Source of the DNA: Patescibacteria group bacterium
GTDB lineage: Bacteria > Patescibacteriota > Minisyncoccia > Phycocordibacterales > DATDWN01
Assembly: GCA_040389125.1 (NCBI GenBank)
Contig: JAZKAN010000002.1
Coordinates: forward strand, 1,232-65,231
DNA: 64,000 nucleotides
Direction of reading: 5' to 3'
Part shown: in pieces, positions 1,585-61,776 of the stretch
How positions within the stretch are numbered: position 1 is the first letter of the stretch
Layout of the letters: each line of letters starts with the position of its first letter
Made by a program: the position numbers and the translations under genes
The notes under the pieces: model-generated
Told to the model about the DNA's origin: nothing
The model's input: only the letters and a program-made list of their open reading frames with translations
The model's database searches: none

Positions 1585-1830
1585 ATGAAAATCAAAAAAG
1601 ACGACAAGGTAATAGTAATCGCAGGCAAGGACAAGGGTAAATCTGGTTCTGTGGTCAAAGCGATGCCAAAGGAAAACAAAGTAGTTGTTTCTGGTGTAAA
1701 CATACTCAAGGTTCACAAGAAAGCTCGCAAGGGTGGTGAAAAGGGTCAGATCATCGACAAGACAATGCCAATTCACGTTTCAAACGTAAAGCTTGCAGAG
1801 AAAAAAGCCAAAGCAAAGAAAACAAAGTAA
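1585..1830 (+). CDS. rplX: 50S ribosomal protein L24
   Basis: 81 aa starting MKIKKDDKVIVIAGKDKGK (KOW motif). It follows rplN. Confidence 0.9.
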   Translation: MKIKKDDKVIVIAGKDKGKSGSVVKAMPKENKVVVSGVNILKVHKKARKGGEKGQIIDKTMPIHVSNVKLAEKKAKAKKTK

Positions 1831-1851
1831 TTTTAAACAACTAAAACTGCC

Positions 1852-2454
1852 ATGGAAACAACAAAAGACAAAGTAGCATCTGCGTTCACAGCCCTCAAGG
1901 GTGAGTTTGGATACAAGAACAAAATGCAGGCACCAAAGATTGTGAAATTGGTGGTTTCTTCTGGTGTGGGATCAATCAAAGATAAAAAGAAAATTGAACT
2001 CGTGATCGACCGTCTCGCTCGCATCACTGGTCAGAAACCAGTCAAGAAAGGCGCAAAGCAATCTGTGGCAGCGTTTAAGGTGCGAGAAGGGGACACAGTA
2101 GGAACACAGATCACTCTTCGAGGTGCGCGCATGTACGATTTTATTGACCGACTCATTCACATCGCTCTCCCTCGAACAAAGGACTTCCGTGGTATTTCTG
2201 CAAACGGCATTGATGAAATGGGTAACTACACAGTCGGCATCCGCGAGCACTCTATTTTCCCTGAAACAGGCGATGAGGAACTCAAAGATATTTTCGGTCT
2301 CGCTATCACTGTCGTCACAAACGTAAAGAATCCAAAAGAAACTCGTGCATTTTTGACTCACCTCGGATTTCCATTCAAGAAAGTAGAAACAAAGGAGGCA
2401 AAAGTTGCAAAGGTTATAGAAACCAAAGGCAAAGCAAAATTCGGTAAAAAATAG
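1852..2454 (+). CDS. rplE: 50S ribosomal protein L5
   Basis: 200 aa with YKNKMQAPKIVKLVVSSGVG and GISANGIDEMGNYTVGIREHSIFPE, which are conserved L5 blocks. Confidence 0.97.
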   Translation: METTKDKVASAFTALKGEFGYKNKMQAPKIVKLVVSSGVGSIKDKKKIELVIDRLARITGQKPVKKGAKQSVAAFKVREGDTVGTQITLRGARMYDFIDRLIHIALPRTKDFRGISANGIDEMGNYTVGIREHSIFPETGDEELKDIFGLAITVVTNVKNPKETRAFLTHLGFPFKKVETKEAKVAKVIETKGKAKFGKK

Positions 2455-2481
2455 AACTTTCAATTTTCAAAATCTCAAATC

Positions 2482-2510
2482 AAAACACCCCACTCGGGGT
2501 GTTTTGATTT
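2482..2510 (+). terminator. Intrinsic terminator directly after rplE
   Basis: Stem AACACCCC (2484-2491), loop ACTC, stem GGGGTGTT (2496-2503), followed by TTGATTT. Confidence 0.75.
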
Positions 2511-2562
2511 ACTTGTATTTTCTTGAAAAGTATGGTTTTATATTGTAGGAGGCTGTAAAGAG

Positions 2563-2958
2563 ATGACGGCGGATACAATCATATTGATTTGTTGGATAGG
2601 CCTTGGCTTGTCCGTGCTTTGCTTGATTCGAGGGTGGCAACTCAGACTCCGTGCTCGACGTAGAGAGCTCGTGCAGAAAGTCACTCTGTACATGAAAGGT
2701 GGAGCATCGGCAAACACCTACCACAAAATCATTATTCGAGTGGTTGCAGGTCGTCAAGTGGTGGCTATCTGCTATGACAAAGGTCGCGAAATAGTCGTCG
2801 CTAAGGTGACTGTGGGGAATTGGACTGTTCAAACCGAGTCCATTCCCAATGAACTCAATCTCTATTCCGACATTAGCGAGGGGGAAGAAATCCTGGAATG
2901 GCTGAATCAAATTGCAGGATATTTGCGCACCTATAACATACCACTTGTGGCGGCGTGA
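2563..2958 (+). CDS. Hypothetical membrane-anchored protein (orphan cassette 1 inside the r-protein operon)
   Basis: 131-aa ORF with an AGGAGG Shine-Dalgarno site upstream. The N-terminus has a hydrophobic helix (IILICWIGLGLSVLCLI). It has its own terminator and is visibly GC-richer than its neighbours. Confidence 0.6.
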   Translation: MTADTIILICWIGLGLSVLCLIRGWQLRLRARRRELVQKVTLYMKGGASANTYHKIIIRVVAGRQVVAICYDKGREIVVAKVTVGNWTVQTESIPNELNLYSDISEGEEILEWLNQIAGYLRTYNIPLVAA

Positions 2959-2977
2959 AATGCCACCACCAAATCAA

Positions 2978-3009
2978 GCCGGCGTACCCACATGGGTCCG
3001 CCGGCTTTT
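2978..3009 (+). terminator. Intrinsic terminator of cassette 1
   Basis: GCCGGCG (2978-2984) pairs with CGCCGGC (2999-3005), followed by TTTT. The tail GCCGGCTTTTCACATGC recurs at 4237-4253. Confidence 0.7.
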
Positions 3010-3069
3010 CACATGCTCAAAACTTGTTTTAAATATGAGAGTATGTTTCCATTATATGAGGAGGGAGAT

Positions 3070-3477
3070 ATGCATAGGCTAACGCTCAGCATGGCCAGTT
3101 TCATCAGTGGGGAATTGGTAAAGGATCTTTGGAGGATGACGGACGGTAGCAATACCTGCTTTAGCTATCTCGACCGCGGGCATTTTGAGGCAGGGGTGGA
3201 GATATGTGAATTTTTTGTTGACATTGGGAGTATGAAAAAAAGACTTGAGTCTACTGGACCTCAATCTCACCCTTGCTCAAGGTTCAATTTTTCCCTGGAG
3301 CTGAGTGAGTCAGCACGAGCAAAGCCAAATGGAATGCTTGTGTTGGGCGTGTTGCAGAGTATGTCCAAACCCACTCAATGCCTTTTGTCTCGTTTGCTAA
3401 ACGGGAGAAATCTGCGTGAGCATCATCTGCAAGCGATAGAAGATTTCTTTTTTGAATTACATCGGCTCCTAGCATGA
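3070..3477 (+). CDS. Hypothetical protein (orphan cassette 2)
   Basis: In-frame ATG at 3070 preceded by GAGGAGGGAG. The track ORF start at 2992 would overlap the previous terminator hairpin. 135 aa with no recognisable motif. Confidence 0.5.
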   Translation: MHRLTLSMASFISGELVKDLWRMTDGSNTCFSYLDRGHFEAGVEICEFFVDIGSMKKRLESTGPQSHPCSRFNFSLELSESARAKPNGMLVLGVLQSMSKPTQCLLSRLLNGRNLREHHLQAIEDFFFELHRLLA

Positions 3478-3494
3478 CTTGTATCCGTTCACCA

Positions 3495-3527
3495 GCTGGC
3501 GTACCCTATCTCGGTCCGCCAGCTTTT
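3495..3527 (+). terminator. Intrinsic terminator of cassette 2
   Basis: GCTGGCG (3495-3501) pairs with CGCCAGC (3517-3523), followed by TTTT. It is homologous in layout and sequence to the terminators at 2978 and 4215. Confidence 0.65.
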
Positions 3528-3583
3528 CGTGTCTACACCATATAAATTTAAATTAAGCTCTCAACCCAGCCTTTTTCTACCCC

Positions 3584-3612
3584 TTGCATTTTATTCTTAT
3601 GTGTGATATAAT
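3584..3612 (+). promoter_or_regulatory. Sigma70-like promoter of cassette 3
   Basis: TTGCAT (3584-3589), 17-nt spacer, TATAAT (3607-3612). Confidence 0.5.
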
Positions 3613-3693
3613 ACAGGAGAAAGCTGAAGTGGGGCAGCTATAGACTCCATTCGCCGTCGGGCGTTAAATAGATCATTGATAAGGTGGTAGAAA

Positions 3694-4194
3694 ATGTTTG
3701 AAACGAATCAGACCCTCACAATTCAGTGGCCAGCACCCCTGGTCATTGTAGCGTCCCTCGCGTTTGCAATTCTGATAGTTGGTGGAGGTGCATGGTACCT
3801 TCATTGGCGAATCAAGGTAGTTATCGAGAAAGCTCTGAGCAAAGGAAAGGGTCTAAGTCATAAAGACGCTCAGCTCCAGACTACTCGCTACAATCTTGCT
3901 GGGCAGATTAAAAATACTCTGGCAACAACTGCAAAAGATCACCCAGTAAGTGATTTCATTCATGTGGAAAACTTATCGGATCGAGCAGAACTTTGCAGGT
4001 ATGTTGTGACAGCTTTCTATGTAAAAAGAAGCGTTGAATTGATTGTCCAAGTGACTGTGATGAAAGACTCGATTACTGCTCAAACTGCTTCTGGTCCGCA
4101 CAGTAGTCTGGGGTGCAGGGCTGATAGCGGAGACATGCTACTTTTTTTGGAAGGAATAAAAGATGAGGTCAGGGAGTTTAGGCCTAAATCCTAA
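3694..4194 (+). CDS. Hypothetical membrane-anchored protein (orphan cassette 3)
   Basis: 166-aa ORF with AAGGTGG 7 nt upstream. It has an N-terminal TM helix (LVIVASLAFAILIVGGGAWYL) and the same overall layout as cassette 1. Confidence 0.6.
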   Translation: MFETNQTLTIQWPAPLVIVASLAFAILIVGGGAWYLHWRIKVVIEKALSKGKGLSHKDAQLQTTRYNLAGQIKNTLATTAKDHPVSDFIHVENLSDRAELCRYVVTAFYVKRSVELIVQVTVMKDSITAQTASGPHSSLGCRADSGDMLLFLEGIKDEVREFRPKS

Positions 4195-4273: not shown

Positions 4274-4443
4274 GCATTACAGAAGCATGAGCATTTTTGG
4301 AGACCCCGCAGGCCTGAAGCATGGTTCTGTCAACGACCCGCCTTTTAGGGGCGGGCTCATTGACAGATTCAGGTCGAGGAAATGCTGAAAGTCCCGCAGG
4401 GGACTTGAAGGAATCTCCAAAAATGCTCATGCTTCTGTAATGC
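4274..4443 (+). repeat. Nested-palindrome repeat, family A, copy 1
   Basis: A 30-nt outer arm GCATTACAGAAGCATGAGCATTTTTGGAGA (4274-4303) is exactly complementary to 4414-4443. The inner core CCGCAGGCCTGAAGCATGGTTCTGTCAACGAC..CTCATTGACAGATTCAGGTCGAGG is shared with 41795-41951 and 43798-43984. Confidence 0.7.
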
Positions 4444-6089: not shown

Positions 6090-6683
6090 ATGGATACAGA
6101 AATTAAAAAAACAGAAGGTGATGTGGTAAGTGCAGGAGCACCTGATTCTCGCGATAATGCGCAGGGTGGTAGTCAAGGTTCATCGCGTGAATTTCGAAAG
6201 AATACTCGCAAGGCACCTCCACGCCGTGAGGCTCGCGTCAAGCCTGAATTCGATCAGAAGATCGTCAGCATTCGCCGCGTGACTCGAGTGGTAACAGGAG
6301 GCCGACGATTCAGTTTCTCTGTTGGTATTGTGATTGGTGACCGCAAGGGTCGCGTCGGTGTGGGACAAGGCAAGGCAGGAGACACTCCGATCGCTATCGA
6401 CAAGGCTGTTCGTGATGCTCGCAAAAACATGATCACTGTCCCTATGACCAAAAATGGTTCGATTCCACACGAAGTTGACGCAAAGTTCTCGAGCTCTCGA
6501 GTACACATCATGCGTGCACCAGGCAAGGGTATTCTCGCTGGATCGTCTGTTCGAACAGTACTTGAATTCGCTGGCGTAAAAGAAGTCAGTGCAAAAATCT
6601 TTTCTCGAAGCAAGAACAAAGTAAACAATGCCAAAGCAGCAGTAAAGGCTCTCGCAACACTCAAGTTGCCAAAGAATAAATAA
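6090..6683 (+). CDS. rpsE: 30S ribosomal protein S5
   Basis: ATG at 6090. The protein contains RRVTRVVTGGRRFSFSVGIVIGDRKGRVGVGQGKA, the S5 dsRBD signature. Confidence 0.95.
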   Translation: MDTEIKKTEGDVVSAGAPDSRDNAQGGSQGSSREFRKNTRKAPPRREARVKPEFDQKIVSIRRVTRVVTGGRRFSFSVGIVIGDRKGRVGVGQGKAGDTPIAIDKAVRDARKNMITVPMTKNGSIPHEVDAKFSSSRVHIMRAPGKGILAGSSVRTVLEFAGVKEVSAKIFSRSKNKVNNAKAAVKALATLKLPKNK

Positions 6684-6690
6684 AAATACC

Positions 6691-7131
6691 ATGCAAACTC
6701 ATAATCTAAAGCGAACACACGCAAATAAAAAAGCACGACAAGTAGGTCGTGGGGGAACTCGTGGAAAAACAGCAGGACGTGGAACAAAAGGACAGAACGC
6801 GCGTGCGGGTCACAAGAAACGACCAGAAATCCGAGATTTCATCAAACGTCTTCCTAAACTTCGTGGACGAGGTAAAAATATCAACACAAGTATTCAAACA
6901 AAACCAGTTGTTGTGAATTTAAAGGACCTCAAAAAATGTAAAGATGGAGATACTGTATCTCCTCGAACACTCGTAAAACATGGTATAGTGAGTAAGGTCG
7001 CTGGTGACCTTCCTCGAATCAAAATCCTGGGCAGTGGTACAGTTGAGGTGAAACTGACTGTAAAAGACTGCGAAGTCTCAGCTAGTGCAAAGGAGGCAAT
7101 CGAGAAAGCTGGAGGGACGGTTGTTCTTTAA
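6691..7131 (+). CDS. rplO: 50S ribosomal protein L15
   Basis: 146 aa with KKARQVGRGGTRGKTAGRGTKGQNARAG. It starts 7 nt after the rpsE stop, so no rpmD lies between them. Confidence 0.95.
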   Translation: MQTHNLKRTHANKKARQVGRGGTRGKTAGRGTKGQNARAGHKKRPEIRDFIKRLPKLRGRGKNINTSIQTKPVVVNLKDLKKCKDGDTVSPRTLVKHGIVSKVAGDLPRIKILGSGTVEVKLTVKDCEVSASAKEAIEKAGGTVVL

Positions 7132-7250
7132 AATCTCATTCTCCTCATGGCTTTTTAAAACACGGAGTCGCTCGGGGCACTCGCGCTCCTCGCTCTCGGG
7201 CCGTCGCCCCGCGTACGGTTTTAAAAAGTCATGAGTCAACGAGATTTTAA
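7128..7250 (+). repeat. Nested-palindrome repeat, family B, copy 1 (overlaps the rplO stop codon)
   Basis: 7132-7246 matches 25592-25706 at 111 of 115 positions by hand alignment. Ends are AATCTC...GAGATT, the stem is CTCATGRCTTTTTAAAAC, and the core is GC-rich. Confidence 0.75.
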
Positions 7251-7300
7251 AGAATACTCGCCTCTGCGCCGGGGTGGTAAAAGAAAATTCAAAAAATACA

Positions 7301-25091: not shown

Positions 25092-25192
25092 TGAGAAACT
25101 CAAATATAGCAAAAAGGAAGGCTATCGAAACGATAATCTTCCTTGTGCTGTAAGGCTATTTGAGGAATTTGTTACCTCAAATACTCTAGATG

Positions 25193-25578
25193 TGGAGATG
25201 GCGACATCGAAGTCGCATGCATAGAGAGAATTGAAGCGGGTCTACAGCGCGTAGTTTGTTTTAGTGTTTTAAATCATACTGCTCGGAACAAACAAAATAC
25301 AGTATGATCGAGTCATCTTTTTTTCGAAACATACTCGAGACTAAATATGTTTCTAACCTGCGTTTTATATCAATCAACTTCCCGTAGCGGGTGTGAGGGA
25401 AGCGACCGTCGTTTAGGCGTTAGCGTAAGCGAAGGAGAAATCATTTACAGTGAAGTAAGGAGATTTAACCTTTGTAACTAAGTTGTTTACACTTAAGTTT
25501 TTCGTGCTGTTTTAGGAGGACACGATACTCCGCGTTGCGCGAATCAATTGGCAAACTATGTCAAAACCTGTCATCCCC
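25193..25578 (-). ncRNA. ssrA: tmRNA (SsrA)
   Basis: The minus-strand 5' end is GGGGATGACAGGTTTTGACA. The 3' end is GCGAC-TTCGAT-GTCGC, then CATCTCC, then A. This gives a 7-bp acceptor stem with a G3:U70 pair. The in-frame tag candidate ends NDFSFAYANA then TAA. smpB is adjacent. Confidence 0.85.
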
Positions 25579-25586
25579 GATGTTAA

Positions 25587-25710
25587 TATACAATCTCTTT
25601 CTCCTCATGACTTTTTAAAACACGGAGTCGCTCGGGGCACTCGCGCTCCTCGCTCTCGGGCCGTCGCCCTGTGTACGGTTTTAAAAAGTCATGAGTCAAC
25701 GAGATTGTAT
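25587..25710 (+). repeat. Nested-palindrome repeat, family B, copy 2
   Basis: 25592-25706 matches 7132-7246 at 111 of 115 positions. It lies between the ssrA 5' end and the smpB stop. Confidence 0.75.
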
Positions 25711-28869: not shown

Positions 28870-28942
28870 GCGCGTGTAGCTCAGTTGGTAGAGCGTTCGT
28901 CTTATACACGAATGGCCGGGGGTCCGAATCCCTCCACGCGCA
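28870..28942 (+). tRNA. tRNA-Ile, anticodon UAU
   Basis: Hand-folded cloverleaf. Acceptor GCGCGTG/CACGCGC, D arm GCTC-AGTTGGTA-GAGC, anticodon arm TTCGT-CTTATAC-ACGAA (TAT at 28913-28915), T arm GGGGG-TCCGAAT-CCCTC. No encoded CCA. Confidence 0.8.
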
Positions 28943-29103
28943 CAAAAAATTATATTTACAATGAAAAGAGAAGACAAAATTTTGATAATATCGATCGGTG
29001 TTCTAATTCTTGTATACATCCTTATACAATTTGTCCGTGTGAACTGGAACTGGTATCAAAATGAAAAGGCGATGAGGGCTGAATCCTCATTACAAATTTT
29101 TTC

Positions 29104-39598: not shown

Positions 39599-39638
39599 GA
39601 ATTTAAATTAGTATATTAAATTATATCTTGTTCATATG

Positions 39639-39725
39639 CGGAGGATGTGAGATTTGAACTCACGGTCCAGTTTCCCGGACGGCGGTTTAGTAAACCGCTG
39701 GTTTAAACCACTCACCCAATCCTCC
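39639..39725 (-). tRNA. Class II tRNA (Ser-like: long variable arm, G73) with apparent anticodon ACU
   Basis: Acceptor GGAGGAT/ATCCTCC. Anticodon arm GCGGT-TTACTAA-ACCGC. Variable arm GTCCGG-GAAA-CTGGAC. T arm GTGAG-TTCAAAT-CTCAC. Discriminator G. Confidence 0.75.
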
Positions 39726-42678: not shown

Positions 42679-43797
42679 ATGTTTGATTTTCTTTCCAACC
42701 TATTCAAAAAGCCGAACCAAAGTGTTTTAGGTATTGATATTGGTTCGTCTGCGATAAAAATAGTGCAACTCAGGCGCAAGGGCGGTCGCGCAATACTCGA
42801 AACATACGGTGAACTTTCTCTCGGTCCATATGCAAACAAAAGTATCGGTGAGAGCACTAACCTATCCGAGGAGAAAATAATCGAGGCACTCAACAATCTC
42901 ATAAAGGAAAAAGAAGTAAATGTTACATCTCGCGAATGTGGTATCGCTATTCCATTTTCAGCATCACTCATGTCTGTTATCGAGTTGCCCCCGGTCAATA
43001 TGAAACAAATTGCGAGCATCGTTCCACTAGAGGCACGCAAATATATTCCCGTACCGATTTCCGAAGTGTCACTTGATTGGTCTGTTATTCCGCCCGACAG
43101 AAATCCTGGTGTAGAGCAGAAATTGGATATGGATGGCAAACCAATTCCACCAAAAACAGAAGTGCTGATTGTGGCAATACATAATGATACGATCACACGA
43201 TACAAAAATATTGTGGCGGCAACTGGACTGTCTGCGTCATTTTTTGAAATAGAGATTTTTAGCACACTGCGCTCGATTCTCGATCAGGAAGTCACTCCAA
43301 TGCTTATCGTAGACATGGGTGCGACAAGTACAAAAGTCTATATAGTCGAGCGGGGAATTCTCCGTGCGTCACACATGATCAATCGTGGTGGTCAGAGTAT
43401 TACGACAGTGTTATCCAAATCGTTGGGTCTGTCTGTTGATGATGCGGAAATAATGAAACGTGACAAAGGAATTCAGGGAACAGCAAACGGTATTGGAGTC
43501 AAAGATGTGGTGACTGTCACTCTTGATTTTATTTTCAGCGAGGCAAACCACGTCGTGCTCGCGTATCAAAAGAAATACAACAAAAATGTGAGCAAGGTGA
43601 TCCTCGTAGGAGGGGGAAGTGCACTCAAGGGCGTTGTGGATGTTGCCAAGCGGAACTTTCAGACAGAGGTAATAGGCGGTGACCCGTTTTCAAAGGTGGT
43701 TGCTCCGGCGTTTCTCGAAAACATACTCAAGGAGACCGGTCCGGAGTTTGCTGTGGCAGTGGGAGTTGCACTACGCAAGTTGCAAGAATTAGGTTGA
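42679..43797 (+). CDS. pilM: Type IV pilus assembly protein PilM (actin-like ATPase)
   Basis: 372 aa with VLGIDIGSSAIKIVQL and VDMGATSTKVYIV. It heads the pilus cluster. Confidence 0.85.
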   Translation: MFDFLSNLFKKPNQSVLGIDIGSSAIKIVQLRRKGGRAILETYGELSLGPYANKSIGESTNLSEEKIIEALNNLIKEKEVNVTSRECGIAIPFSASLMSVIELPPVNMKQIASIVPLEARKYIPVPISEVSLDWSVIPPDRNPGVEQKLDMDGKPIPPKTEVLIVAIHNDTITRYKNIVAATGLSASFFEIEIFSTLRSILDQEVTPMLIVDMGATSTKVYIVERGILRASHMINRGGQSITTVLSKSLGLSVDDAEIMKRDKGIQGTANGIGVKDVVTVTLDFIFSEANHVVLAYQKKYNKNVSKVILVGGGSALKGVVDVAKRNFQTEVIGGDPFSKVVAPAFLENILKETGPEFAVAVGVALRKLQELG

Positions 43798-43984
43798 GAA
43801 AACTTTTCAAACTCCTCTCCCCAAACCCGTTTCAGAGACGCTCGCTTTTCCTGCGAAAAGCTCTCTCGGTCCTCGACCTGAATCCGTCAATGAGCCCAAG
43901 TATTCTCTTGGGTCGTTGACGGAACCATGCTTCAGGTCTGCGGATGCTCTGAAACCGGTTCGGGTCGACGAGCTTGAAAAGTTT
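43798..43984 (-). repeat. Nested-palindrome repeat, family A, copy 3 (inverted orientation)
   Basis: The reverse complement carries CCGCAGACCTGAAGCATGGTTCCGTCAACGAC..CTCATTGACGGATTCAGGTCGAGG and CTTTTCGCAGGAAAAG. It begins at the base after the pilM stop codon. Confidence 0.7.
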
Positions 43985-44124: not shown

Positions 44125-44499
44125 ATAATCGTTCATTAGAAGTATTGTAGTTGGGATGCAGTTGAGTGGGTTTGGAGGACTTGAGCCTTCGCCCACAATG
44201 GAGAATACCATGCACAACCGCGGATCCACGGCGCACGGCGCCTACGTCAACCATCATAGCGCCCATTTGAGCCATGTCCCGATGATCGTCACCACCGCGC
44301 GCGCCAACCATCGCAAGTAACCCGGCGCCGGCGGCCGGCGAGTGCGAGCGACCACACGGTCGCTGCGCTTGCCAGGCGAGAATGAGAAGTATTCCAGTCC
44401 GATCGCGGGCGCCAGCTTTGGGAAATATCGAAAGATAAAATCCCTAACGCTACGCCCGCAGGCCCCAGCCCCCGACCACAAATCGGGGGTGTTTTTTTG
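44125..44499 (+). other. GC-rich transcription unit of unknown function (short His-rich ORF or ncRNA), promoter to terminator
   Basis: This is visibly the most GC-rich stretch of the window. The ORF 44198-44320 encodes MENTMHNRGSTAHGAYVNHHSAHLSHVPMIVTTARANHRK with strongly G/C-biased third codon positions. The terminator is CCCCCGA..TCGGGGG followed by T7 (44469-44499). Confidence 0.3.
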
Positions 44500-44515: not shown

Positions 44516-44733
44516 TGAATAAATCCAGAATAATATAATTTTGGAAACTCCGGAAACGATTAGGAAACAACGACGAATGAAGAGGAGTCCGAAGCACTGT
44601 TTGAGCACAGGTACTCCTGGCGAGTTTGCGAGAGGACTCTGGAATGAGGACGATTGTTTCCTTGATCGTTGAGGTAGAGGAAAAAGTCACCAGACTTTTA
44701 TCCGTTTTTCAAAATTATATTATTCTGGATTCA
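44516..44733 (+). repeat. Nested-palindrome repeat, family C, copy 1
   Basis: The outer arm AATCCAGAATAATATAATTTTG pairs with CAAAATTATATTATTCTGGATT. The core CCGAAGCACTGTTTGAGCACAGGTACTCCTGGCGAGTTTGCGAGAGG is shared, in reverse complement, with 58384-58594. Confidence 0.7.
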
Positions 44734-44827
44734 TGAACCACTTTGTCCACAGCTCCCACTGTGTTTTTTATTTCCATATTCTTGTATACTTACTCTAGTA
44801 TTTGTGCGCGAATTCACACACTAACTC

Positions 44828-45433
44828 ATGGAACCAAAATTTCAAACATCGTTCATTCCAAAAAATTCAGGCACGATGGGATCGGGCAATATCATCGAGG
44901 CTGTTCACACCACAAACCTATTTACTGTTATTAGTTCGGTTGTATTTATCGCTACACTTCTCGCATCTGGCGGGGCATTTGCATACAAAAAATATTTAAC
45001 TGACCAAGTAAACAAAGCCAGCAGTGAACTCGGTAGCGCCACAGAAGCATTTGCACCAGATAAAATTCAAGAACTTGTAGACGCGAGTTCGCGTTTGGCC
45101 ACAACAAAACACCTACTCGTAAATCATGTGACCGTTTCAGAAGTTTTTAGTTTATTGCAGTCGCTTACTGTGTCCAAAGTTAGATTTACCAGTTTTGAAT
45201 TTTCAATAAAGGAAAATCACATGAGTGTCGCAATGGATGGTGAGTCGCAGACATACAATGCACTCGCCAACCAATCTGATGCGTTTTCACAGAATTCATT
45301 TATTATTGCCCCATTATTTTCAGATGTGAATCTGACAACCCAGGGAAATATCGGTTTCAAGTTTGTCGCGACGCTTAATCCCGATCTCGTATCCTACAAA
45401 AAAGCGATTGAAGCACTAAAATCAAACCCATAA
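44828..45433 (+). CDS. pilN: PilN-like pilus assembly protein
   Basis: 201 aa with a single TM helix, then a coiled region and an alpha/beta C-terminal domain. It lies between pilM and the pilO-like gene. Confidence 0.6.
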   Translation: MEPKFQTSFIPKNSGTMGSGNIIEAVHTTNLFTVISSVVFIATLLASGGAFAYKKYLTDQVNKASSELGSATEAFAPDKIQELVDASSRLATTKHLLVNHVTVSEVFSLLQSLTVSKVRFTSFEFSIKENHMSVAMDGESQTYNALANQSDAFSQNSFIIAPLFSDVNLTTQGNIGFKFVATLNPDLVSYKKAIEALKSNP

Positions 45434-51037: not shown

Positions 51038-51493
51038 ATGAAAAAGAGTCTTTCACGAGGTTTCACACTCATTGAACTTTTGGTTGTTATCGCTATCATC
51101 GGTATCTTGTCATCAGTTGTTCTCGCATCACTCAACACAGCACGAACAAAGGGTGCAGATGCAGCTATAAAGAGCAACCTAAACAATACACGTGCTCAGG
51201 CAGAACTTATATATGACCCAGCAGGTTCATATGCAACTGTTTGTGCTGATACAACAACAATTCAGAAAGCTATGGCAGCGGCTCATGTTGCTGCAGGTCT
51301 CACTGGTGCAGATACATACGCTTTTGCTACAGCAGGAACTTCTAACACTGTTGCTTGTCAGTCACAGGCTGGTTCATGGGCTATTGAAGCGCCTCTAAAG
51401 GGAGGTGGATACTGGTGTGTAGATAGTACAGGATTTTCTGGAGCACGAGTAAGTGTTCTTGCAGCATCTGCAGGTGCTTGCCCAGCTACATGA
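51038..51493 (+). CDS. Type IV pilin (prepilin N-terminal cleavage/methylation motif)
   Basis: The N-terminus MKKSLSRG/FTLIELLVVIAIIGILSSVVLASL is a class III signal. A C-terminal Cys pair is present. Confidence 0.88.
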   Translation: MKKSLSRGFTLIELLVVIAIIGILSSVVLASLNTARTKGADAAIKSNLNNTRAQAELIYDPAGSYATVCADTTTIQKAMAAAHVAAGLTGADTYAFATAGTSNTVACQSQAGSWAIEAPLKGGGYWCVDSTGFSGARVSVLAASAGACPAT

Positions 51494-51623: not shown

Positions 51624-52046
51624 ATGCATCATTCGCGCACACATGGATTTACACTCATTGAACTTTTGGTAGTTATCTCAATCATTGGGGTATTGAGTTC
51701 TATTGTCCTTGCTTCACTAACAAATGCACGAAGCAAAGGAGCGGATTCTGCTATAAAATCTAATTTAAATAATATACGTTCGCAGGCAGAATTGTCCTAT
51801 GATAACGGTGCAAATGGATATCAAGGTGCATGTACATTTGGAAATAATACTGATTTGTACAATGCTGCAAAAGCCGCTGCAGGGTGTGGAGGAGCAACGT
51901 GTGGGGCGTGTGCAAACAGTACTGGTGCGTGGTCAGTGTGGGTTCAACTCAAAACGGTTCCTGCAGATGCCTGGTGTGTGGATTACAAGGGGAGCGCTAA
52001 AACAGTCAGTCCAAAACCTGCTGCCCCTATAACTTCCTGCCCCTAG
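51624..52046 (+). CDS. Type IV pilin, second paralogue
   Basis: The N-terminus is MHHSRTHG/FTLIELLVVISIIGVLSSIVLASL. Confidence 0.88.
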   Translation: MHHSRTHGFTLIELLVVISIIGVLSSIVLASLTNARSKGADSAIKSNLNNIRSQAELSYDNGANGYQGACTFGNNTDLYNAAKAAAGCGGATCGACANSTGAWSVWVQLKTVPADAWCVDYKGSAKTVSPKPAAPITSCP

Positions 52047-54816: not shown

Positions 54817-58381
<3,565 letters not shown>

Positions 58382-58383
58382 GT

Positions 58384-58594
58384 AAAGGAAATAAATATAT
58401 TTTCAGAGCACGCATAAAATTGTACTCAATTTTTGCTCTCGCTCAGAGATCAAGAAAATAATACACTCAATGCGTAGCCCTCTCGCAAACTCGCCAGGAT
58501 TACCTGTGCTCAAACAGTGCTTCGGGCTTACTTCATTTTCGCTGTTATTTTCTAATCTCTTCCGCAGTCTCAAAAAATTATATTTATTTTCTTT
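58384..58594 (-). repeat. Nested-palindrome repeat, family C, copy 2 (inverted)
   Basis: The reverse complement carries CCGAAGCACTGTTTGAGCACAGGTAATCCTGGCGAGTTTGCGAGAGG plus homologous arms. It starts 3 nt after the ligA stop. Confidence 0.7.
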
Positions 58595-58626
58595 ACTTTT
58601 GCTCATTTTCCAAAAAATGCTATTGT

Positions 58627-58932
58627 ATGAGTATGATAACAACTGATGAAATCAAACACCTTGCCGAGCTGGCACGCATGGAGCTTTCTCCAGGGGAAAT
58701 AGAAGGATTGACCGGACAAATTGACTCGATTCTGGGGTATGTAGGACAAATCAAAAACGCAACAGGCGATATGGTACAGGAATTACCCCCACTGAGAAAT
58801 GTTATGAGGGAAGATGTCGTAACAAATGCCTCCCGAGAATATACAGAGGATATTTTAGCCAACACTCCAAATCGCGAGGGTGATTATTTGAAAGTAAAGA
58901 AAATTCTTGGTAACAGCGACGATATTATTTAA
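58627..58932 (+). CDS. gatC: Asp/Glu-tRNA amidotransferase subunit C
   Basis: 101 aa with IKHLAELARMELSPGEIEGLTGQIDSILGYV. Confidence 0.9.
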   Translation: MSMITTDEIKHLAELARMELSPGEIEGLTGQIDSILGYVGQIKNATGDMVQELPPLRNVMREDVVTNASREYTEDILANTPNREGDYLKVKKILGNSDDII

Positions 58933-61426: not shown

Positions 61427-61432
61427 ATCTTG

Positions 61433-61776
61433 TTGCGGGACCAGGACTTGCACCTGGGTCTGAAGGTTATGCTTTCCACTATAGTTTTCACTACTTCCAA
61501 ATTTCAAAAATTTGTAATTTGTGGTCTGGACTATACCATTTCCTTTTTCAAACGAGTTTGAAGGTAAGGAATTCACCATCTAGTCTCTACACATTTATCA
61601 GTTGATTTTAGTCATCTGAATTTAGCTCGGAATTGTCTTTCTCTACTATACTATAGTAAAGAGAGGATTTCTCCGAATTTGGCGAATGCAATCCTAAAAA
61701 TTTCTTTTTAGGTGGCCCATACAGGATGCAAGATCCAATACTTGAGCCTTCCGAGATACTGCTTCTCTATCCCGCT
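61433..61776 (-). tRNA. Initiator-like tRNA(CAU) interrupted by a 273-nt group I intron in the anticodon loop
   Basis: The 5' exon (61776-61745) is AGCGGGA-TA-GAGA-AGCAGTA-TCTC-G-GAAGG-CT. The 3' exon (61471-61433) is CATAA-CCTTC-AGAC-CCAGG-TGCAAGT-CCTGG-TCCCGCA-A. The spliced loop is CTCATAA. Features are A11:U24 and a 1:72 mismatch. Confidence 0.75.
61472..61744 (-). mobile_element. Group I self-splicing intron (IC3/Azoarcus-like core)
   Basis: The minus strand contains GTGTAGAGACTAGATGG (plus-strand 61576-61592) and CAAATTCGGAGAAATCC (61665-61681). As recalled, these closely match the Azoarcus tRNA-Ile intron core segments. U precedes the 5' splice site and G ends the intron. Confidence 0.75.

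Follow-up and report, generated by a model that had tools for sequence, protein, structure and literature searches.

Two copies of a nested palindrome, here called family C, lie in the 64,000-nt stretch of contig JAZKAN010000002.1 from a Patescibacteria group bacterium (the window). Our results showed that family C is a real, widespread, non-coding family of about 215 nt that was gained by insertion. It is the Patescibacteria form of a cross-phylum structured element that has no Rfam entry, and it works most like REP/REPIN and ERIC/Correia repeats. We favour, with a probability of about 0.42, the reading that family C is a non-autonomous mobile element which spreads via a folded single strand and whose tip is recognised by a factor acting in trans. 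This mechanism of spread is proposed from comparison of the sequences. A structured RNA family with its own function is the main rival; a cis-acting hairpin and a DDE-type MITE (miniature inverted-repeat transposable element) are weaker.

Bacterial palindromic repeats such as REP, ERIC and Correia are normally lineage-specific and conserved at their ends. Here the conserved part is a structured tip, found from ultra-small Patescibacteria to gut Firmicutes and glacier Betaproteobacteria. The two insertions in the window appear to represent a kind of small mobile element, without proteins, that has not been described before. If a trans-acting factor docks at the tip, this offers a handle on the movement of gene-less elements within and between distant bacteria, and the tip is a candidate for a new protein-nucleic-acid recognition module. 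As there are carriers in culture (Polaromonas, Rheinheimera, Variovorax and Comamonas), this question can be tested directly.

Two rods with nearly identical cores

The initial annotation had described a 47-nt core shared by the two copies with one difference, and more diverged homologous arms around it. Consistently, the cores were identical at 46 of 47 positions, and the single difference (C versus A, the M position) falls inside the loop of hairpin P2. The left and right arms were identical at 46/74 and 59/98 positions, so that arm identity is about 60% against 98% in the core, and the two parts are not equally conserved. The whole copies aligned with 72.8% identity over 232 nt in blastn (nhmmer E=8e-25). 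The core pattern had exactly two matches in the window and none in 100 shuffles of the sequence. A core covariance model found the same two copies (71 and 67 bits), and its next match in the window reached 11.8 bits.

Both copies were confirmed as long imperfect hairpins. The predicted fold of copy 1 had an energy of -83.6 kcal/mol (z=-8.2 versus shuffled controls) and that of copy 2 an energy of -62.5 kcal/mol (z=-4.7). The outer arms of copy 1 are 29 nt long and 93% complementary. Between the two copies, 10-13 base pairs are preserved by two-sided changes.

Copy 1 is bounded by TGAAT at 44516 and ATTCA at 44733, with pilM (42679-43797) and a pilN-like gene (44828-45433) as neighbours. The first base of the copy 2 palindrome (58382) directly follows the stop codon of ligA (56312-58381), its last base is 58596, and gatC (58627-58932) lies beyond. 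The earlier placing of the copies, in opposite orientations before the pilN-like gene and after ligA, was right within about 4 nt (Table 1). The two copies alone in a 64-kb window might be taken for chance similarity or a recent local duplication, with neither a family nor constraint behind them. We regard this as practically negligible: it is refuted by the absence of shuffle matches, by hundreds of homologues with covariation and by the unequal divergence of arms and core.

Table 1. Coordinates of the two family C copies and their parts in the window.
Feature	Position	Strand	Remark
Copy 1, whole rod (nested palindrome)	44516..44733	+	between pilM and pilN-like gene, co-oriented with both
Copy 1, core, 47 nt	44589..44635	+	covariance model R1 = 66.8 bits
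Copy 1, P1 5' strand GCA	44594-44596	+	part of core
Copy 1, J1/2 CTGTTTGA	44597-44604	+	part of core
Copy 1, hairpin P2	44605-44621	+	part of core
Copy 1, J2/1 GAGTT	44622-44626	+	part of core
Copy 1, P1 3' strand TGC	44627-44629	+	part of core
Copy 1, side hairpin GGAAAAAGUC-ACCA-GACUUUUAUCC	44679..44703	+	three-way junction with closing helix and long arm
Copy 2, whole rod	58382..58596	-	between ligA and gatC, folding strand antisense to both
Copy 2, core, 47 nt	58479..58525	-	covariance model = 71.1 bits
Copy 2, side hairpin GCAAAAAUUGAGUACAAUUUUAUGC	58412..58436	-	fold and 23-sequence alignment

The tip module is conserved in its loops and covaries in its helices

The core itself is not a palindrome. 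Read on the CUGUUUGAGC strand (hereafter the motif strand), it has five parts: helix P1 (GCA/UGC), the 8-nt strand CUGUUUGA, hairpin P2 (in the window GC-A-CAGG UAMU CCUG-GC), the 5-nt strand GAGUU and the return strand of P1. In its general form, the tip module (about 45 nt) consists of P1 (GCR/UGC), an asymmetric loop (5' CUGUYUGA, 3' GAGUU) and a P2 of free sequence and length. The GA before P2 and the GA after it can form tandem G.A pairs stacked on P2, and this GA/GA is invariant in the aligned cores.

Covariation was quantified in an alignment of 49 sequences. The score for P1/P2 was 0.297, as compared with 0.10 in column shuffles (0 of 500 reached it) and at most 0.16 with slid partners, and P1/P2 contained 130 double-change cells. 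P2 occurred in 61-79 different sequences with 2 to 10 base pairs. P1 and its extension differ between lineages with their pairing retained. In this alignment 21 bases are invariant by construction, since they were set by the search pattern. A covariance model built from it recovered 24 further copies in the same loci without the exact pattern. In these copies the first loop tolerates CUGUCUGA, P2 can shrink to GC-GAA-GC and its closing pairs covary (GC..GC to GG..CC), and the rest of both loops is fixed save for single-copy substitutions.

The near-invariance of the unpaired nucleotides, together with the covariation of the surrounding helices, indicates that the core is under selection. The suggestion that selection acts on the core rather than on the arms was therefore right for the core; it did not hold for the arms, in which pairing is kept by many compensatory changes. 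A small open reading frame (ORF) in the core was ruled out, because the length of P2 varies out of frame. At the tip of P2, GNRA or UNCG was found in 0 of 35 tetraloops, and GNA in 9 of 24 triloops. GNRA and UNCG loops are usually enriched at the tips of RNA hairpins, and GCGAAGC is an exceptionally stable DNA mini-hairpin.

The rod below the tip was aligned in 23 Patescibacteria copies from genome and metagenome contigs, all of which have the same architecture of about 200 nt. The outer arm reads roughly CGAAAUCAUAAK-UUUUU and is followed by a closing helix, AGAGAC (5') with GUCUCU (3'). The outer arms are AT-rich, differ from copy to copy and are weakly homologous between copies. In the long arm, AUUAGAAAACAA pairs with UUGUUUUCUUGAU, interrupted by conserved purine-rich internal loops with many G.A oppositions, and the core forms the tip. 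The third branch of a three-way junction is a side hairpin of some 10 bp, in which an A is bulged and the loop is of ANYA type. RNAalifold gave 44 consensus pairs for the 23 copies, of which 30 showed compensatory changes; the side-hairpin pair 225-236, for example, is UA in 10 copies, CG in 7, GC in 4 and AU in 2. The ends of the rod pair and carry a weak CGAR...YGAG signature common to a second rod family of the window (family A, see below). The recurrent tetranucleotide is CGAG. The centre of the element is far better conserved than its ends. The first assignment to a MITE-like or structured-RNA family is thus supported at the sequence level, with homologous rods in more than 20 other Patescibacteria contigs.

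The same tip caps different rods in at least six phyla

One genome per species was scanned with the pattern CTGTTTGAGC-N(10-20)-GCGAGTTTGCG. At least 117 loci carried the motif, and a narrower scan of metagenome contigs added 51. About a dozen of the matches were chance matches inside coding regions, and the remainder have the same layout. The tip module caps otherwise different rods in at least six phyla, including Patescibacteria, Bacillota, Actinomycetota, Melainabacteria, Beta- and Gammaproteobacteria and a deltaproteobacterial metagenome-assembled genome (MAG). By their record titles, the hosts include Peribacteria, Paceibacterota, Saccharibacteria and Zambryskibacteria. Burkholderiales are represented by Polaromonas, Giesbergeria, Comamonas, Variovorax, Rhodoferax and others. 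Further hosts are Rheinheimera and Lysobacter; Lachnospiraceae, Eubacterium, Roseburia and Oscillospiraceae; Coriobacteriaceae and Phoenicibacter; Gastranaerophilales with other Melainabacteria; and the deltaproteobacterial MAG.

The spread is patchy, with bursts of copies in some genomes. Polaromonas and Rheinheimera have many copies per genome, with a repeat unit of about 220-240 nt; some genomes have dozens, and the motif was not found in 5,426 complete E. coli genomes. A phage or plasmid origin was rejected, given that the motif had no match in phage records and one in IMG/VR, and that the Firmicutes version had no plasmid matches. On plasmids the Polaromonas version was seen solely in Variovorax and Comamonas megaplasmids, where it is unannotated and lies between convergent genes.

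No Rfam 15 model, those of the self-cleaving ribozymes included, matched over either copy when the whole window was searched at the gathering threshold. With both copies searched at E up to 10, chance matches alone appeared, far under the gathering score, and 16 loci from other phyla gave nothing over the element. Literature searches with the motif strings, strings of a proteobacterial 3' module and keywords returned unrelated primers or general REPIN papers only.

This 3' module is a separate pyrimidine-rich hairpin about 100 nt 3' of the core, found in Proteobacteria, Melainabacteria and Peribacteria (L007, L009, L010, L019, L045, L120, L140 and others). Its sequence is UCGCC-UUUCUUUUG-CUUACUUUUCUUUG-GCGAAG-CAAAGAAAAGUAAG, and it contains a mirror-repeat polypyrimidine tract. 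The module also occurs alone, with at least 40 repeats per replicon in Paraburkholderia, and is present, unannotated, in records of Ralstonia, Pasteurella, Pseudoalteromonas and Aeromonas.

One strand of the rod folds better, whatever its orientation

Mismatches in the rod were counted on the motif strand by comparing the left arm with the reverse complement of the right arm in the low-GC set. G.U (126) was more frequent than A.C (59), and G.A (171) more frequent than C.U (55). The control mismatches were symmetric (A.A 76 versus U.U 69; G.G 28 versus C.C 22), and high-GC copies had the same trend. The excess thus consists of the two mismatch types that a single folded strand tolerates.

Fold stability gave a similar picture. 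Among 88 copies de-replicated at 80% identity, RNA parameters gave the motif strand the greater stability in 76 (mean difference -8.3 kcal/mol), and DNA parameters did so in 78. The copies occur in all four arrangements relative to their neighbours; in Patescibacteria, 13 copies point the same way as the upstream gene and 8 the other way. The mean difference between strands was -10.7 kcal/mol for sense, -11.0 for antisense, -9.2 for convergent and -9.9 for divergent copies. Since the asymmetry is equal in every orientation, transcription by the host at the individual sites is not its source; it is a property of the element or of its propagating form. Such a strand-specific, transcription-independent fold is not expected of a classical DDE-type MITE or of a hairpin under selection in host mRNAs alone.

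Insertion and persistence

LigA homologues placed the window in the Patescibacteria, close to Paceibacterota and Zambryskibacteria. In four relatives, with LigA 69-71% identical, pilin genes, ligA, gatC and gatA follow in the same order, and 18-19 nt separate ligA from gatC, as against 245 nt in the window. Therefore about 215 nt, outer arms included, is inserted DNA. Judged from these empty sites, copy 2 is a lineage-specific insertion, and the family behaves as inserting DNA would. Insertion into a pre-existing host palindrome was rejected: a 19-nt spacer is too short for a 30-bp palindrome, and the outer arms are weakly homologous between copies.

The flanks were inspected at 27 copies, the ligA-gatC copy included. 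None had a target-site duplication, that is, a direct repeat outside the palindrome, and neither a TA duplication nor a fixed flanking tetranucleotide was visible. We also took a census of 150 neighbouring ORFs within 3.5 kb of low-GC copies. The neighbours are unrelated housekeeping genes. No Pfam family occurred more than twice, no RAYT or intI gene was seen, tnpA and tnpB did not recur, and two of the ORFs were DDE transposases. All-against-all clustering of the ORFs round the copies returned orthologous loci and GC-rich artefacts only, and the sequence of an ORF flanked by two inverted Rheinheimera copies, read by eye, was not suggestive of a transposase.

These results bear on the classical MITE, which derives from a DDE-type insertion sequence by internal deletion and is moved, as double-stranded DNA, by a transposase bound to its terminal inverted repeats. 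Family C resembles it in being small, non-coding, palindromic and present in several copies with insertion polymorphism. The two neighbouring DDE transposases are in its favour, as is the fact that families A and C have the same base and ends with different tips, like MITE families served by one transposase. We nevertheless consider it very unlikely. It meets with no target-site duplication at any of the 27 copies, the best conserved part is the centre rather than the ends, binding of double-stranded DNA leaves the strand-asymmetric mismatches unexplained, and no full-length parent element was present among the loci examined.

The history of the pilM-pilN copy is unlike that of copy 2. Besides the window, three further lineages carry a family C element between these two genes and co-oriented with them, namely L174 (PilM identity 88%), L087 (64%) and L115/L154/L167 (68%); for L087 and L167, one of pilM and pilN falls within the locus examined. 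In L175 (79%) the base of the rod and the side hairpin alone remain at this position. Between the window and L174, the outer arms of the copies are almost unrelated, with each pair complementary and 17-19 pairs compensated. Pairing may have been selected for over a long time, or one copy may have replaced another. From these comparisons we infer that copy 1 is old.

A long-kept copy is what a host cis-acting hairpin would leave, that is, an mRNA stabiliser, RNase III site or bidirectional terminator which is inherited vertically, tunes for example pilM against pilNO, and is not mobile. The co-oriented pilM-pilN position in four lineages, the high stability of the hairpins and the Firmicutes copies, which often lie between convergent genes with runs of A and T at their flanks, agree with this. 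The ligA-gatC copy does not, being a lineage-specific insertion that lies antisense inside an operon. The neighbours form no recurrent family, sense and antisense copies are equally asymmetric, which selection through host mRNAs would not yield, and a scan of the window copies detected no canonical terminator. A plain stabiliser, moreover, needs no tip motif common to several phyla. Taken together, a cis-acting hairpin is quite unlikely.

Transcription signals were scanned at both copies. Copy 2 had neither a sigma-70-like promoter nor an intrinsic terminator (GC-rich stem with U tract). At copy 1, small terminators were found solely outside the element (44468-44490 and 44748-44763), and these signals belong to neighbouring units. 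No promoter box was conserved across the 23 Patescibacteria copies. A riboswitch or leader was rejected, because the downstream genes are unrelated and the element occurs in all orientations.

A proposed single-strand intermediate, or possibly an RNA gene

Under the favoured reading, family C would multiply via a single-stranded intermediate that spans the whole element and is more probably single-stranded DNA (ssDNA), as lagging-strand template or in excised form, than RNA. The rod would form in this intermediate, and the tip module would serve as docking site for a structure-specific protein acting in trans. Such a protein might be a widely conserved enzyme of the host, or else a transposase or endonuclease whose gene lies at another place in the genome. 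An inserted copy could then persist for long, like the one between pilM and pilN, and when transcribed it would form a very stable hairpin in the host mRNA.

We lean towards ssDNA for four reasons, none of them decisive. The fold takes in the outermost arms, without transcription signals as limits, so the folded molecule spans the whole element. None of the 35 tetraloops is GNRA or UNCG, and GNA triloops are common, the minimal GCGAAGC included. The G.A excess is larger than the G.U excess. Finally, the asymmetry ignores the direction of transcription.

Several observations weigh against a mobile single strand. The search pattern accounts in part for the 21 "invariant" bases. The pilM-pilN copy has the same place and sense orientation in four lineages, which fits a retained cis-acting RNA equally. 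No trans-acting enzyme was identified within about 8-15 kb round each copy. GC skew is positive throughout the window, and the two copies thus lie on opposite strands of one replichore, so that a strictly lagging-strand function is impossible for both. The three-way junction and the conserved internal loops are also more elaborate than known ends of ssDNA transposons and have the look of a protein-binding RNA.

The last point leads to the main rival, in which the copies are genes for a structured non-coding RNA, free-standing and some 190 nt long, that is part of a ribonucleoprotein, with the apical loop binding a conserved protein as 6S RNA binds RNA polymerase. Its extra copies would have come from duplication and horizontal transfer. 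P1, P2, the long arm and the side hairpin all covary strongly, as would be expected of such a gene, and the same goes for unpaired nucleotides conserved across phyla and a strand-specific fold with excess G.U and tandem G.A. The size and topology (closing stem, bubble with 3' hairpin, long arm) recall 6S RNA, and the pil-locus copy was kept in place and orientation. Against this, the copies lack the signals of a gene: neither promoter nor terminator was found at copy 2, no box is shared by the 23 Patescibacteria copies, and pairing reaches into outer arms that differ between copies and adjoin stop codons, which leaves the limits of a transcript unmarked. Copies in all four orientations to their neighbours, dozens of them in some genomes and none in E. 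coli, are likewise unfavourable, as are the absence of GNRA and UNCG from the P2 tetraloops and of any matching Rfam model, 6S included. We consider an RNA gene unlikely but a serious contender.

A bolder form of the single-strand proposal can be put forward only tentatively. The tip module (P1, CUGUYUGA, P2, GAGUU, P1) would then be an undescribed nucleic-acid motif occurring across bacteria and the functional head of mobile rods without proteins, a new class replicating as folded single strands. In such a class the tip may recruit an unrecognised structure-specific enzyme, or else machinery common to all hosts, such as primase, RNA polymerase or a repair nuclease. Rods could also swap tips, as families A and C share their base and have different heads.

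Comparison with known systems

REP/REPIN elements, which are mobilised by RAYT (HUH Y1) transposases, share most with family C. Both are small non-coding intergenic palindromes with many copies that lack a gene of their own and leave no target duplication; both presumably act as folded single strands moved in trans, and both can persist long in a lineage. Unlike family C, REPINs are doublets of 20-40-nt REPs with a conserved flank (GTAG/CGTC) and a variable tip; in family C the arrangement is reversed, with a conserved tip between variable flanks. Each REPIN family is restricted to a lineage, whereas the family C tip spans phyla, and the unit here is about 200-240 nt with a three-way junction. 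The GTAG/CGTC tag was absent from the family C sequences inspected, and no RAYT gene was seen beside any copy among the 150 neighbouring ORFs.

ERIC/IRU, Correia (NEMIS), RUP and BOX elements are likewise imperfect intergenic palindromes, of 100-200 nt, which occur in either orientation and form long hairpins with compensatory changes. Unlike family C, they are confined to one genus or family. Correia duplicates TA, which was not seen at the 27 copies here, and carries an IHF site. To our knowledge, none of these families has been reported with a cross-phylum structured tip or an orientation-independent strand asymmetry. PATE elements, which bear omega-RNA and derive from IS200/IS605, have a subterminal hairpin at either end, insert 3' of a fixed tetra- or pentanucleotide and are related to tnpA or tnpB. 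For these, the Rfam models IS605-orfB and HEARO gave no match, and the copies inspected had no fixed flanking tetranucleotide.

Integron attC and CTX-phage attP sites (60-150 nt) also function in one folded DNA strand, in which pairing and a few unpaired bases are kept. In contrast to family C, attC is conserved at the hairpin base (R''/R', GTTRRRY) and variable at its tip, and it forms same-orientation arrays beside intI. Assignment to attC was rejected, as no R''/R' boxes (RYYYAAC / GTTRRRY) were seen on inspection and the copies are dispersed in both orientations.

Among RNAs, 6S is also a rod of about 190 nt with a closing stem, an open region with a small 3'-side hairpin and a long arm, and in its helices, too, structure is far more conserved than sequence. 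It differs in having one or two copies with their own promoter and processing, and a central bubble, whereas the conserved loop here is near the tip. Many copies, insertion polymorphism, the lack of a promoter in our scans and the absence of a match to the Rfam 6S model led us to reject it. Locally, the order CUG-N-GA / helix / GA-N, in which tandem G.A pairs stack on a short hairpin, is like the hammerhead on its stem II side. A hammerhead needs CUGANGA...GAAA and three helices; family C has CUGUUUGA...GAGUU and two helices, and the Rfam hammerhead models did not match. Tandem G.A beside a bulge also recalls the kink-turn, in which a 3-nt bulge stands directly before the G.A pairs, unlike the six nucleotides opposite three found here. 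Likeness to 5S loop E and to helix 8 of the signal recognition particle (SRP) RNA was inspected by eye and dismissed, as the definitions of these motifs do not apply.

Related rods and other features of the loci

Family A rods lie at 4274-4443 (+) and about 43830-43965 (-) of the window, and also in L157 (7503-7641), L163 (2612-2750), L119 (3317-3440) and L174 (4790-4940). The base common to families A and C comprises terminal UCGAG..UGAGA, UUUUCAGAGC, CGCAGGC (5'), GCCGAGG followed by the side hairpin, and GUCUUUGAAAA. Both families occur together in several Patescibacteria contigs and look like one superfamily with exchangeable heads.

Family B rods were found at 7113-7265 (+) and 25589-25709 (+) of the window and at 2795-2954 of L092. 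Their GC-rich centre is 95% identical over 121 nt between the two window copies. The second copy abuts the 5' end of the transfer-messenger RNA gene (25190-25578, minus strand). In some Melainabacteria (L016 1049-1309 (-), L125 and L118), a family C-type rod lies directly upstream of the SRP RNA gene. Rods beside highly expressed RNA genes may be a pattern.

Between pilM and copy 1, a GC-rich unit stands out in the AT-rich genome (44090-44498, +). It contains a sigma-70-like promoter (TTGACT-17-TATGCT), a 36-codon ORF (MHNRGSTAHGAYVNHH...) and a strong terminator (44468-44498). L174 matches parts of it with 88-90% identity, and at the same place L175 likewise has a promoter, a GC-rich stretch and a terminator of similar kind. 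With no Rfam match and a fold z-score of -3.4, the unit could be a small RNA or small-protein gene.

For annotation, the rods explain unusually long intergenic spacers in compact Patescibacteria genomes, and ORFs called across them call for caution. In L175, a 175-aa gene is called at 6135-6662 across the non-coding pilM-pilN spacer, which holds the promoter, the GC-rich unit, the terminator and the degenerate rod; this call is probably spurious. Just upstream of the pil cluster of L175, genes for Phage_CRI (a filamentous-phage replication initiator of the HUH type) and a serine recombinase occupy 1605-4141, which may be an integrated ssDNA element.

Elsewhere in the window, a tRNA-Leu(CAA) gene at about 61432-61776 (-) has its anticodon loop split by a group I intron (61505-61735; Rfam, 64 bits), and ARAGORN detected the gene solely with introns allowed. 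ARAGORN also listed the unusual anticodons of tRNA-Ile(TAT) at 28870-28943 (+) and tRNA-Ser(ACT) at 39638-39725 (-). Finally, a 163-nt direct repeat with 72% identity (51054-51216 and 51640-51802) covers the starts of two adjacent ORFs of 151 aa (51038-51493) and 140 aa (51624-52046), which are probably pilin paralogues.

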